Of a stretch of 64,000 nt of DNA, positions 56,399 to 60,300 are shown piece after piece (within the stretch, counting starts at the first letter, position 1; every line of letters starts with the position of its first letter). The translations under genes were made by a program, and so were the position numbers. The stretch lies in contig JBLWTG010000004.1 in NCBI GenBank assembly GCA_048270225.1, positions 86,452-150,451 of the forward strand, in the 5' to 3' direction. A model generated the notes under the pieces. The model searched no databases. It had not been told where the DNA came from and saw only the letters and a program-made list of their open reading frames with translations. The stretch is from Pusillimonas sp. GTDB lineage: Bacteria; Pseudomonadota; Gammaproteobacteria; Burkholderiales; Burkholderiaceae_B.

Positions 56399-57133
56399 CT
56401 ATGTCCACGCCAGCAGCGCGCTGGATGCCGCGATCAGCGCCAGCCCTGCTGTTTCCGTGCGCAGCACGCTGCGCCCGAAACTGACCGGCGTCAGGCTGTG
56501 CTGCTGCGTGAGCCGCAGTTCGTCGTCGGACCATCCTCCCTCTGGGCCTACCAGCAATGTCAATGAGGCCTCGACCTGGTCGAGCGCCTGGGCCAGGGTG
56601 CGCTGCGCGCCGGGGTGGCAGAACAGTGTCGTTGCGGGGTCAGGTGTGCTGTTTTCCAGGTAGGCTTGCAGGGTGCAGGGTTCGTGGATGTCCATCAGCC
56701 GATTGCGTCCGCACTGCTCGCTGGCGGACAGCGCGATGCGGCGCCAGTGAGCCAGCCGCTTGCGCAGGCGGTCTCCGGACAGCTGCAGCACGCTGCGGTG
56801 GGCGAACACAGGCTGTACCTCGGCAGCGCCCAGCTCTACCGCTTTTTCGATGATCCAGTCCATTTTGTCGCCTGAAGGTATGCCTTGCACGAGGACGATG
56901 CGCCCGCCCAGTTCGGTTTCGATGGGGGCGTGCGCGCCCAGCCTGGCATAGCCCTGTTTGCCGTCGATGATCAAGTGGCCTGGGTATTGGCCTCCCTGGC
57001 CGTCGAACAGGACAAGCGGCGCGTCGGGCTTGAGCCGCAGCACGCGAATGGCGTGGTGGGCGAGGGCGTCGGGCAGGGCCACGGTGCTGTCGGCCGTCAG
57101 CGGGCCGGGATGGAAGAATCGGGGCAGGGTCAT
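56399..57133 (-). CDS. rsmE: 16S rRNA m3U1498 methyltransferase
   Basis: HHAIRVLRL, KAVELG, VGPEGGW, VLRTETAG. Confidence 0.95.
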   Translation of the reverse strand: MTLPRFFHPGPLTADSTVALPDALAHHAIRVLRLKPDAPLVLFDGQGGQYPGHLIIDGKQGYARLGAHAPIETELGGRIVLVQGIPSGDKMDWIIEKAVELGAAEVQPVFAHRSVLQLSGDRLRKRLAHWRRIALSASEQCGRNRLMDIHEPCTLQAYLENSTPDPATTLFCHPGAQRTLAQALDQVEASLTLLVGPEGGWSDDELRLTQQHSLTPVSFGRSVLRTETAGLALIAASSALLAWT

Positions 57134-57251
57134 GGCAACAGGGGCGGCGACGGAAAACGGAGTGCTGTGGTTGATATGGCGTGAGTGCAGCCAGCGGGGT
57201 TGCGGCTGTCGTGCGTCAAGCATACTGTACCGCAGGGTGGTGCGGCTTTGC

Positions 57252-58125
57252 ATGCTTTCTGTTGACGGGCGGCGCGCGCATCTCCTGTCTTCCGGTGCAC
57301 GCTGTGCCGGTGCGGTGCTCGTGTGTTGAGCGTGGCTTGGGCTGTGTGCTGTCTATTGACGGTCGATGCGCAGCTTCCCTGTCTTGCGGCACAAGCTGAG
57401 CCGGTTCGGCGCCCACGCGCCGAACATCGCATCGGCTTGCTCGTCCGGGCCCTGCGGCCCTCCCTTCGCGAGCGCCTTGCTCGGCTCAGATAGTGCCTTC
57501 AGACAGGGAAGCTGCACACCGCCCTGCGGTGAATATTGACGGGACGCCGCCGGGGCGGCCAGCGTGCTTGGCCTTCTTGCGGTGTGCTGTGCCTGTGCGA
57601 AAGACTTCTTGCGCTCGTGAACATGGGCCCCACTATCTGGGCCCATGTTCACGTCGGAGCGTTGGTTGCTGAGGGATGTCCTTGTGCAGCGCTGGCTGTT
57701 GGGGGCGCGCAGCGCTTTGAAGCCGTCCATCTGCGCGCCCAGCCAAACACGTGCACGGCCTTGCCGTAGCAGGCGCCCCGCCGTGAAAACCCAGCCTTTC
57801 GCCCTCCCACGCCCCGACGTGAAGACGGCCCCAGATAGTGGGGGCCGTCTTCACCAGCGCAAGAAGTCTTCCGCCAGGAGCTAAAGCAACGCAAAAAGGC
57901 CAAGCAAACAGACCGTCCCAACGGCGCCCCGCCATCATTCACCGCAGGGCGGTGTGCAGCTTTCCTGTCTGAAGGCACTATCTGAGCCGAGCGAGGCGGA
58001 GGCGAAGGGAGGGCCGAACGGCCCGGACGAGCAAGCCGATGCGATGTTCGGCGCGTGGGCGCCGAACCGGCTCAGCTTGTGCCGCAAGACAGGGAAGCTG
58101 CGCATCGACCGTCAACAGAAAGCAT
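57252..58125. repeat. Nested inverted-repeat element: two ~370-bp copies head-to-head plus a degenerate partial copy, bounded by 17-bp perfect terminal IRs
   Basis: 57356-57451 is the exact reverse complement of 58020-58115 (96 bp); 57452-57534 vs 57937-58019 differ at 7 of 83 positions; ATGCTTTCTGTTGACGG (57252-57268) pairs with 58109-58125. Confidence 0.95.
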
Positions 58126-58254
58126 ACGCAACCCCTGCACCCCGCGTCCCAAAACCCCATACCCGCCCCAATGGTAAAATCGATTGCTTTGCATATCCTT
58201 CAATATCGAGGGGCCGGCCTGCTTACCGGGACGGCGCCTTTTGCGAGTGTTCCG

Positions 58255-60300
58255 ATGAGCCTTACCCCTGCCCAAGATACCTCCATGGCCAATGCAATCC
58301 GCGCCCTGGCCATGGACGCAGTCCAACAAGCCAACTCGGGACATCCCGGCGCCCCCATGGGCATGGCCGACATCGCCGAAGTCCTCTGGACCCGCCATCT
58401 GCGCCACAACCCCGCCGACCCTGCATGGCTGGATCGCGACCGCTTCGTACTGTCCAACGGCCACGGCTCCATGCTGCTGTATGCCTTGTTGCATCTGACC
58501 GGCTACGATCTGCCCATCGACGAACTGCGCAACTTCCGGCAATTGCACTCGCGCACCCCCGGCCACCCCGAAGTCGGCATGACCCCCGGTGTCGAAACCA
58601 CCACAGGCCCCCTGGGCCAGGGCATAGGCAACGCAGTCGGCATGGCGCTGGCCGAAGCCCTGCTCGCGCAGGAATTCAACCGCGAAGGCCACAAGGTCGT
58701 CGATCACTACACCTACGCATTTGCCGGCGACGGCTGCCTGATGGAAGGCATTTCGCACGAGGCCTGCTCTCTGGCCGGCACGCTCAAGCTGTCCAAGCTT
58801 ATCCTGTTTTACGACGACAACGGCATTTCCATCGACGGCCACGTCGAAAGCTGGTTCGGCGACAACACTCCGGAACGCTTCGCGGCCTATGGCTGGAATG
58901 TGATTCCCAACGTGGATGGGCACGACGCCGCCTCCATCGAAGCGGCCATCGAGCAGGCGCATCAGTTCGCCGCCCAGGCCAAGGGGCCGACCATCATCTG
59001 CTGCCGTACCGTGATCGGCAAGGGTGCGCCCACCATGGCCGGCACCGAAAAAGTGCACGGCGCGGCGCTGGGCGAAAAAGAAATCGAAGCCACGCGCGAA
59101 GCGCTCAACTGGCCCTATCCGCCGTTCGACATTCCGAAAGAAATCTACAGCTACTGGGATGGCAAGCAAAAGGGCGGCCAGCTGCAGGCGCAATGGCAGC
59201 AAGGCCTTGACGCCTATGCTCAGGCCTACCCGCAGGAAGCCGCCGAACTGCAGCGCCGCATGCACGGCGAACTGCCGGCCGATTTTACTGAGCGCGTGCG
59301 CGCCTTCATACAGCAAACCAACGACAAGGCCGAAACCGTTGCCACCCGCAAGGCATCGCAACAGGCCATCACGGCTCTGGTCGAGATGCTGCCCGAAATG
59401 CTGGGCGGGTCGGCCGACCTGACCGGCTCCAATCTGACCAACTGGAAGGGTGTGGAGCCCGTGCGTGCAGGCGACCTGCACCTGCGTTTCGGTCGTCACA
59501 TCAACTACGGCGTACGCGAATTCGGCATGGCTGCCATCATGAACGGCATCGCCCTGCATGGCGGTTACCTGCCATTTGGCGGCACCTTCCTGACCTTCTC
59601 GGATTACTCCCGCAACGCCATCCGCATGGCGGCGCTCATGAAACAGCGCGTCGTGCATGTGTTTACCCATGATTCCATCGGGCTGGGCGAAGACGGCCCT
59701 ACCCACCAGTCCGTCGAGCATGCGGCCAGCCTGCGCCTGATCCCCAATCTCCATGTCTGGCGTCCCTGCGACACCACCGAAACCGCGGCCGCCTGGGCCT
59801 ACGCAATCCGTCGTCCGGTCAGCATCGGCATGACTGTGCGCGAAGGCGGCCCCAGCGCATTGCTGCTGTCGCGCCAGAACCTCGAGTTCGTGCCGCGCGA
59901 CGAGCAGGCCATTGCCGACATCAACCGCGGCGGTTACGTGCTGCGCGACGCCAAAAATCCCAAGGCGGTGATCATCGCCACCGGTTCCGAGGTAGGGATT
60001 GCGCTGGCTGCGCAAAAACAGCTGGCCGACAAAGGCATCGCCGTGCGTGTGGTGTCCATGCCGTGCGCCAATGTATTCGATGAGCAGGACCAGGCCTGGC
60101 GCGACGCCGTGCTGCCCAAGGGGCTGCCGCGCGTGGCGGTCGAGGCCGGCGTTACCTGGGGCTGGTACAAGTACGTGGGTGTGGACGGCGCGGTGGTGGG
60201 CCTGGACCGCTACGGCGAGTCGGCCCCCGGCGGCGAGCTCTTCGAGTATTTCGGGTTTACTGCCGGCCATGTCGCCGAGGCAGTGGAAAAGGTTCTATAA
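58255..60300 (+). CDS. tkt: Transketolase
   Basis: [30 protein letters not shown]. Confidence 0.97.

Follow-up and report, generated by a model that had tools for sequence, protein, structure and literature searches.

The intergenic region at 57254-58254 of the DNA analysed here, a 64,000-nucleotide stretch of a Pusillimonas sp. genome (hereafter the window), lies between the divergent genes of an RsmE-family methyltransferase and transketolase (tkt) and holds two perfect hairpins that share an eight-nucleotide loop, CACTATCT, which raises the question of what such hairpins are part of. The initial annotation proposed that selection acts on the stem structure together with the loop sequence, as expected of a protein-recognised hairpin such as the substrate of an HUH nuclease or the site of an RNA-binding protein. 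We find that the hairpins are neither a stand-alone protein site nor a repetitive extragenic palindromic (REP) element with its REP-associated tyrosine transposase (RAYT). They form the inner stem-loop of each arm of a non-coding repeat of about 0.8 kb, which is spread through one group of Alcaligenaceae. We lean towards reading this repeat as a non-autonomous, structured DNA element, and it is best read as a new family, one without a match in Rfam or in the literature that we searched.

Re-reading the sequence confirmed both hairpins where they had been annotated. Hairpin 1, at 57617-57652, reads GTGAACATGGGCCC-CACTATCT-GGGCCCATGTTCAC and reaches 15 bp when the flanking C-G pair 57616/57653 is included (CGTGAACATGGGCCC-CACTATCT-GGGCCCATGTTCACG), and hairpin 2, at 57819-57854, reads GTGAAGACGGCCCC-CACTATCT-GGGGCCGTCTTCAC on the minus strand. 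Their stems differ at positions 6, 8 and 11, and since both are perfect, each of these three differences is compensated on the opposite arm, as had been claimed. On either strand, the folding energy of each is about -30 to -32 kcal/mol, with a z-score of -7 to -8.3 against shuffled sequences. The octamer CACTATCT also occurs as often as was first noted, four times in the window (at 57488 and 57833 on the minus strand and at 57631 and 57976 on the plus strand) against 0.52 expected, a count reached in none of 100 shuffles.

The two hairpins belong to something larger. Positions 57344-58127 form a 784-bp inverted doublet of two units of about 320 nt, A and B, and each hairpin closes one arm. The outer arms (57344-57584 and 57887-58127) are complementary at 90% and the inner arms (57597-57665 and 57806-57874) at 86%; because the inverted arms match to this degree, the hairpins are corresponding parts of the two units. 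Within each unit, the fold consists, in order, of an outer stem (P1), a three-way junction with the hairpin P2, a 3' domain of conserved motifs and the terminal hairpin (Table 1). The remaining two octamers, at 57488 and 57976, occupy equivalent places in the long P1 stems of units A and B, and in other copies the place of AGATAGTG reads AGATCGTG or AGATCATG. The coordinates of paired positions in the two units sum to 115471, and a covariance model of the core matches unit B at 57976-58086 with 106 bits. The outer terminal motif is kept at the outer unit ends in all genera, giving the element terminal inverted repeats (TGCTnTCTnTTGACGG here).

Table 1. Features of the inverted doublet and its surroundings, in window coordinates
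Feature	Position	Strand	Remarks
RsmE-family RNA methyltransferase gene	56399..57133	-	PF04452 (1e-47) and PUA_4; flanking context, outside the element
Partial, degenerate copy of the outer (5') ~65-90 nt of the unit	57254..57343	+	tandem, outside unit A
Unit A, left arm, ~320 nt	57344..57665	+	inverted repeats I1 and I2; conservation extends ~25 nt past the hairpin
Outer terminal motif TGTGCTGTCTATTGACGG	57345..57362	+	family terminal inverted-repeat end (TGCTnTCTnTTGAC/GGAC)
P1 5' arm, unit A	57361..57403	+	inverted repeat I3 with 57482-57524, 81% complementary
P2 hairpin, unit A	57404..57425	+	GTTCGGCGC-CCAC-GCGCCGAAC; near-invariant across genera; direct repeat D3
P3 hairpin, unit A	57447..57460	+	GGGCC-CTGC-GGCCC; tops the irregular P4 helix (about 57432-57478)
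P1 3' arm, unit A	57482..57524	+	holds octamer AGATAGTG (57488-57495) in an internal loop
3' domain, unit A	57525..57615	+	conserved, apparently unpaired motifs CTGCR, GCYGGGRCGG, GTGCTTGGCCTTYTTGC, GAAAGA, TTGCGCTCG
Terminal hairpin, unit A (copy 1)	57616..57653	+	15-bp stem; loop CACTATCT at 57631-57638
Doublet centre, 140 bp	57666..57805		not conserved between copies
Unit B, right arm	57806..58127	-	~88% identical to unit A
Terminal hairpin, unit B (copy 2)	57819..57854	-	14-bp stem; loop CACTATCT at 57833-57840
Unit B inner features	57947..58110	-	P1 arms 58068-58110 and 57947-57989; P2 58046-58067; P3 58011-58024; octamer 57976-57983
Transketolase gene (tkt)	58255..60300	+	PF00456, PF02779, PF22613; flanking context, outside the element

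A search for the same stem-CACTATCT-stem pattern across the source genome (G000; 4.5 Mb, 60% GC, with the window on contig C4) returned three hairpins beyond the two of the window, one of them with a third stem variant (CGTGAAGCCGGGCCT...AGGCCCGGCTTCACG), together with near variants that carry the loops TCTATCT and CCCTATCA. With blastn, nine units were found: pairs on C4 (in the window), at C2:78.5 kb and at C14:50 kb, a single unit at C14:58.7 kb, and one each at C2:205.9 and C2:213.4 kb. Seven of the nine end in a terminal hairpin, with the stems GTGAACATGGGCCC (twice), GAAGACGGCCCC (twice) and CGTGAAGCCGGGCCT (once) around the loop CACTATCT, GATTGCCGGCCC around TCTATCT and GGTCATGGCCC around CCCTATCA. 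The doublets on C4 and at C2:78.5 kb carry the same two hairpin variants and are up to 94.6% identical; what separates copy 1 from copy 2 is therefore the contrast between the left and the right arm of a single doublet type, present twice in this genome. The centres of this genome's three doublets cannot be aligned to each other.

Extragenic inverted hairpin doublets with compensated stems and a locally conserved loop are what REP or REPIN (REP doublet) palindromes serviced by a RAYT, an HUH nuclease of the Y1 type, would look like, and this speaks for the HUH-nuclease substrate suggested in the initial annotation. We give that reading next to no credence. The presence of the Y1 domain (Y1_Tnp, PF01797) does not follow the element across genomes: none was found in the sister species G002 despite its at least 10 units, in the source genome it is limited to a fragment of 41 residues at the end of a contig, and four genomes of the same genus (G001, G003, G005 and G006) have the domain and lack the units. 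Furthermore, every such hairpin terminates a ~320-nt unit, none standing alone, and the genome has just five to seven of them (five CACTATCT hairpins plus two variants in 4.5 Mb). No conserved head of the GTAG type is visible, and the loop varies between genera.

This variation of the loop separates the two halves of the original claim. The loop proved not to be invariant but replaced between lineages: in the sister species it is CCCTATCA in nine of ten hairpins and CCCTATCC in the tenth, and in other genera it is CCTGC, CCAGC or CCACC. In those other genera, P2 bears the same CCTGC loop. The terminal loop is thus conserved within lineages only. The constraint on the stem, in contrast, was borne out by 52 homologous hairpins from several genera, in which 90.2% of cells pair (58.2% in shuffles) and double changes are seen at all 12 pairs. 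The covariation score of this alignment is 0.726, against 0.182 in shuffles (reached in none of 500) and at most 0.206 when partners were slid.

A covariance model across the copies was also built for the core, and covariation was strong there as well as in the terminal hairpin. An alignment of 102 matches to this model, which we built here, has 97.2% of cells paired (84.4% in shuffles) and double changes at 17 of 20 pairs; its covariation score of 0.327 compares with 0.124 for shuffles and with no more than 0.076 for slid partners. Being fitted to the model, the alignment leans towards the structure. P2 is 98.5% paired in this alignment with double changes at six of nine pairs, for example UA to CG in 26 sequences, and all four pairs of P3 have double changes. 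The 3-bp P4 segment reads GGC/GCC here and GCC/GGC, GUC/GAC or GCG/CGC elsewhere. The sequence of the P1 arms is almost wholly different between copies and genera, with complementarity kept; in the genome G159, for instance, GTGAGGGC/GCCCTCAC is replaced by GTGCGGGC/GCCCGCAC and by GTGGGGGC/GCCCCCAC. Between the stems lie the conserved motifs of the 3' domain (CTGCR, GCTGGGACGG, GTGCTTGGCCTTTTTGC, GAAAGA and TTGCGCTCG), near-invariant columns in the 52-sequence alignment, and RNAalifold found no conserved helix in this domain from the same alignment. Each arm thus keeps a multi-helix single-strand fold (P1, the P2/P3/P4 junction and the terminal hairpin) across many genera, and the perfect, compensated stems of the window reflect the family-wide conservation of this fold.

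Perfect stems could also arise as a by-product of quasi-palindrome correction by intrastrand template switching, or by chance, without any selection on structure. Template switching is an established route to the perfecting of quasi-palindromes, and the stems here are mostly perfect and show few wobble intermediates even though the arms have diverged almost fully. However, helices of comparable length persist at identical places beside invariant unpaired motifs in 16 genera, and covariation extends to short, irregular helices of 2-4 bp, which correction would not maintain. Chance is excluded by the octamer count and by the z-scores of the folds. We therefore regard a by-product as very improbable.

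Unit A as a whole is predicted to fold at -188 kcal/mol (z -10.5) on the plus strand and at -176 kcal/mol (z -8.1) on the minus strand. Across the family, the mismatches in terminal hairpins are A.C ten times and G.T once, and A.C would be G.U on the reverse strand. In 49 of 50 units, the 5' domain is likewise stabler when read on the reverse strand, the mean difference being 12.7 kcal/mol, with 163 G.U pairs against 93. A coding reading of the conserved core was rejected, since its stems are complementary and indels in the loops disrupt its frames from one lineage to another; the P2 loop is one base longer or shorter depending on the lineage, so that no reading frame can be shared. A kissing interaction of the terminal loop (CACUAUCU) with AGAUAGUG in P1 of the same unit was rejected as well, as just the four closely related units of the source genome show it in perfect form and no others have it. 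In most genera, the 5' arm of P1 and its outer flank are strongly G-rich (GGGGTGGCGGGAGGGG; e.g., L086:5003-5185 and L058:5198-5380), and the 3' arm and the opposite flank are C-rich. The two strands of each unit are thus markedly asymmetric, and one of them may have the potential to form G-quadruplexes.

How the family is distributed was assessed by scanning 201 sampled genomes of the bacterial family, from 51 genera, with the covariance model, taking at most 19 scored candidates per genome, so that unit counts are minima; a higher cap gave 78 cores in the genome G159. The core is present in 43 genomes from 16 of the genera, with 1 to at least 78 units per genome, and units are absent from five of seven genomes of the same genus as the source genome. 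The exact core pattern was found at 70 loci in genomes and metagenome-assembled genomes (MAGs) of Pollutimonas, Candidimonas, Pusillimonas, Allopusillimonas, Eoetvoesiella and Orrella, and in genus g8 the core takes a more distant form, in which P3 contains an insertion and a change in P2 is compensated. The exact pattern also occurs in three contigs of a MAG labelled Pseudomonas sp. LC094 (L032, L075 and L087, with near-full units too) and in one contig of a MAG labelled Actinomycetota (L070). Since the family is otherwise confined to Alcaligenaceae, these bins are probably mislabelled or contaminated.

Units are nearly always arranged as convergent pairs with a spacer of 19 bp to ~1 kb, a rule that holds in G002, G008, G013, G159 and the named genomes. 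In G008, however, the stem sequences of paired arms are not the same, so each arm folds by itself. The outer neighbouring gene points towards the unit in 73 of 91 cases, with units starting 1-25 nt past the stop codon. Doublets lie mostly between convergent genes, the divergent context of the window being an exception, and several loci recur beside the same neighbouring genes in different genera.

At the locus of the window, a box CATACTGTA (57223-57231) upstream of the methyltransferase gene, on the left of the insert, is conserved in every relative compared, and a box TGGTAAAAT (58172-58180), ~75 nt upstream of tkt and on its right, is conserved in all eight relatives compared. Probably these boxes represent the -10 regions of divergent promoters. 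The insertion of the doublet falls precisely between the boxes and takes their distance from ~25-70 bp to about 0.9-0.95 kb. The site is filled in the source genome and in the sister species G002 and empty in G001, G003, G005, G006, G007 and G008, where 25-70 bp separate the boxes; in G004, the ~0.9-kb insert is also absent, judged by eye. Two doublets of G002 lie at sites that are empty in the source genome (C3:438226-438254 and C12:80837-80879). Comparisons of filled with empty sites yielded no sharp junction, the intergenic DNA being too diverged. Thus, the family is patchy, variable in copy number and present or absent at orthologous intergenic sites, and the rsmE-tkt copy appears to be an old resident common to the source genome and its sister species. 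Orthologous loci of these two genomes hold different subfamilies, with one unit at the tkt locus of G002 being 87.8% identical to a C14 unit of the source genome and ~75% identical to the orthologous unit, which suggests that copies have been exchanged or replaced within genomes.

The element as a whole can be seen in G159, a genome of another genus, with at least 78 unit cores in about 40 doublets of ~860 bp (loci L141-L160), some at sites that are empty in the genomes G096, G205 and G056. These doublets are 82-92% alike over their full length, including the centre, while their two halves are only ~72% alike. As whole doublets are more alike than their own halves, the doublet is the unit of duplication. 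Among 10 aligned full copies, likeness ends at TGCTTATTGGACGTCGAG on one side and at CTCGACGTCCAATAGCACTC on the other, the terminal motif marking the limit (the terminal inverted repeats here are TGCTTATTGGACGTCGAG/CTCGACGTCCAATAGCA), and P1 therefore starts at the very end of the element. About 15 contig ends of this genome fall inside the element, the repeat breaking the assembly.

The position of the units just past stop codons, co-oriented with the upstream gene, would also be expected if each unit were a structured non-coding RNA or a 3' untranslated region element with a host function, such as a stabiliser of mRNA 3' ends, a barrier between convergent genes or a source of small RNA, with its loop bound by protein or RNA. 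We hold this to be possible rather than probable. It would account for family-wide covariation in four separate helices with conserved unpaired motifs between them and for the recurrence of loci beside the same neighbouring genes. In addition, contigs from runs labelled as RNA or metatranscriptome cover mainly the inner part (the 3' domain and the hairpin) of G159-type doublets, but these contigs carry no strand information, and the ~40-80 genomic copies and a possible carry-over of DNA confound them. One low-depth run of G013 labelled as RNA looked like DNA, and RNA runs were sought for the source organism and for G115 and none was found. Other observations speak against a host RNA. A scan at the hairpins detected neither a sigma-70 promoter-like site nor an intrinsic terminator; the sequence that follows them (CACGTCGG or GCATTCGG) has no U-tract and was not called as an intrinsic terminator. 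The lack of any copy in five of seven congeners and a range of 1 to at least 78 copies are odd for a host RNA, and the wobble asymmetry described above points to the strand antisense to the upstream gene. Searches of Rfam at permissive thresholds returned for the window only a chance match to mir-941 (26 bits against a gathering score of 60) and nothing at E-values up to 0.1 for four representative loci, and a search of the literature on Pusillimonas and Alcaligenaceae repeats and on IS256 targeting found nothing relevant. A sigma-54 promoter reading of CTGGCAC-N8-TGCTT was rejected by eye because its spacing is 2 nt too long.

A further possibility is that the units are the long terminal inverted repeats of a transposon of the IS256/Mutator family, with the doublets as internal-deletion derivatives. 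In genus g8 (G115 and G076), a full 430-aa Mutator-family transposase (PF00872, 1.8e-123) is encoded between two units. The genome G115 has nine identical copies of this gene (C1; loci L171, L173 and L185-L190 examined), with unit cores flanking all eight copies examined as well as the single copy of G076, most of them 40-60 nt from a terminal hairpin. This DDE transposase of the IS256 family, inserting beside the hairpins in that genus, is the one link to a protein that we found. One doublet centre in G013 holds a remnant of the left inverted repeat and N-terminus of this insertion sequence (IS), and two doublet centres in G002 hold C-terminal remnants of a related transposase. The 7.5-kb, cargo-like island between two inverted units of the source genome (C2:205922-213473; L021 and L024) would also fit such a transposon.

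Nevertheless, the transposase of G115 belongs to a standard IS that has its own ends and was inserted secondarily. Seven aligned copies define an element of 1383 bp with inverted repeats of ~29 bp (GGGAGTGTCATAAATTTTGTGTTTGAGGC and GGGACTGTCAGGATTTTTGTGTTTGAGGC), unrelated to the unit ends, and with 8-bp target duplications that differ at each copy. Three copies are 99.7-99.9% identical and three others 89-93% identical over longer stretches that include flanking units, whereas the flanking units are 79-85% alike. A near-identical IS inside units so much less alike must have entered pre-existing doublets, and this IS appears to be active. One of its copies is nested in an older copy of itself. 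No duplication of 8-9 bp was found around the doublets themselves in the G159 copies, and two transposase copies in G008 are far from any doublet. Of the 201 genomes, 11 have both the element and this transposase clade, where chance would give 10.5. G159 has no member of the clade, and no IS256-family transposase (Transposase_mut, PF00872) was found in the window or in the whole source genome. With the overlap at chance level and no transposase in either of these genomes, the doublets do not depend on it. In the centre of the window's doublet, no transposase remnant, transposase similarity or IS inverted repeat was found. We consider it improbable, as a result, that the units are the ends of such a transposon.

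Our favoured reading is, again, that of a non-autonomous structured DNA repeat, and it could be completed as follows. The element would persist as a selfish or tolerated repeat, and its location after stop codons and between convergent genes is typical of tolerated repeats. Its arms would have to fold single-stranded, as extruded or replicating DNA or as read-through RNA, in order to be copied or kept. The stems would be kept by selection on pairing, with help from exchange between copies and perhaps from intrastrand template switching, and the unpaired motifs and loops may be read by their sequence. No candidate mobilising enzyme was found in the source genome.

Several observations weigh against this reading. 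A 110-nt internal core with covarying helices in 16 genera exceeds the usual need of a miniature inverted-repeat transposable element (MITE) recognised by a transposase, and it fits a functional RNA equally. An autonomous partner with the same ends was not found, all 78 matches to the end motif in G159 being ~0.8-kb doublets or contig ends. No 8- or 9-bp direct repeat indicative of a target-site duplication was detected, at two stringencies, around 19 copies of G159 at offsets of 0-59 (best identity 0.32 against a background of 0.20), the copies being old (82-92% alike) and their ends blurred; the exact ends are blurred by the G-rich and C-rich flanks. The signals of strandedness conflict, with the wobble asymmetry favouring the reverse strand and unit A of the window folding better on the forward strand. 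Finally, the different subfamilies at orthologous loci of the source genome and G002 mean that part of the pattern could be due to gene conversion rather than movement.

A bolder proposal, which we regard as unlikely, is that the ~320-nt unit represents a new class of large structured nucleic-acid element with a fold read by protein, the doublet serving as a landing pad for IS256/Mutator transposases and other incoming DNA in a harmless intergenic site, or else that the units are undescribed functional RNAs. The landing pad is suggested by the presence in doublets of all eight G115 copies examined, by the remnants in doublet centres of G002 and G013 and by the 7.5-kb island of the source genome. 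This island looks like foreign DNA lodged in a doublet centre. Its third-position GC is 0.5-0.58 against ~0.77, and its open reading frames (assigned by eye) resemble a ChrA-like chromate transporter, an alpha/beta hydrolase, a glyoxalase-like protein, an orfA fragment of IS3 and two pairs of the toxin-antitoxin type. The unit on the left is missing its terminal hairpin, which was lost at the junction.

The covariation of the element, over about 320 nt and at least 16 genera, is unusually clean, yet neither Rfam nor the literature searched contains it. If the fold is indeed read as RNA or by a specific protein, the family would be a new class of structured element that can be tested directly in cultivable, non-pathogenic Alcaligenaceae. 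Even a purely selfish repeat would be useful as a marker. The element also accounts for assembly breaks, with many G159 copies at contig ends, and it provides a case in which an IS selects a structured repeat to insert into, a point of relevance to the way transposons locate safe sites.

Some features outside the doublets concern their ends. The degenerate partial copy beside unit A begins with the same terminal motif, CATGCTTTCTGTTGACGG (57251-57268), and by blastn its positions 57254-57318 are 80% identical to the outer end of unit B and 82% identical to that of the C2 copy (direct-repeat family D2). Comparable tandem partial copies flank unit pairs in the sister species. Outside the tkt-locus doublet of that species (L101:430-600), there are six to eight tandem repeats of ~23 bp, GATTCTGTTGGCACATGCTGATA and GATTCTGTTTGTTCGTGCTGGTG, which repeat the element's end motif TTCTGTTG; some of them contain GCTGGTGG, the E. 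coli Chi octamer.

We lastly compared the element with known systems. Integron attC sites have R''/R' core sites (RYYYAAC...GTTRRRY) and form arrays of cassette open reading frames beside an intI integrase. By eye, the GTTCGGC of P2 departs from GTTRRRY, and the units occur as scattered pairs that lack cassettes; no search aimed at an integrase was made. The bridge RNA of IS110 and the omega RNA of IS200/IS605 (HEARO) are also few-hundred-nt units with covarying helices at the ends of a mobile-looking element. The present units differ in that they have no Rfam match and are known here from DNA sequence, and no IS110, TnpB or IscB gene was found in or beside the doublets examined.

The IS256 family is characterised by Transposase_mut (PF00872), inverted repeats of 24-41 bp and target duplications of 8-9 bp, a combination seen only in the 1383-bp element inside the doublets of G115 and G076 and not in the repeat itself. 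Its relatives, the Mutator-like elements (MULEs), whose eukaryotic members have ends of 100-500 bp, resemble the doublets in having long terminal inverted repeats around a variable centre with a Mutator-family transposase or cargo. In contrast to MULEs, the transposase between the units is that of an ordinary short-repeat IS inserted secondarily, and no 9-bp duplications were found around the doublets.

Closer in kind are the short dispersed repeats of bacteria. MITEs, Correia/NEMIS, ERIC, RUP and BOX elements share with the present family a non-coding nature, a dispersed distribution, terminal inverted repeats, presence or absence at sites and bursts in single genomes, such as that in G159. 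Unlike in these elements, the inverted repeats here are ~300 nt long and internally structured, with stems that covary across genera, and no cognate transposase was found. The REP, bacterial interspersed mosaic element (BIME) and REPIN families of Enterobacteria and Pseudomonas differ more in scale, a palindrome of 20-40 nt comparing with a ~320-nt unit that has a three-way junction and unpaired motifs, and tens to hundreds of copies comparing with only nine units in this genome. They are linked to a RAYT, which the present units are not, and are targeted by IS3 or IS110 elements, whereas the IS that targets the repeats of the relatives studied here is of the IS256 family. They are alike in being extragenic and palindromic, in forming inverted doublets with compensated stems after genes or between convergent genes, and in being preferred targets of insertion sequences, and the REP/REPIN doublet able to form a larger hairpin has its counterpart in the convergent pairs described here.

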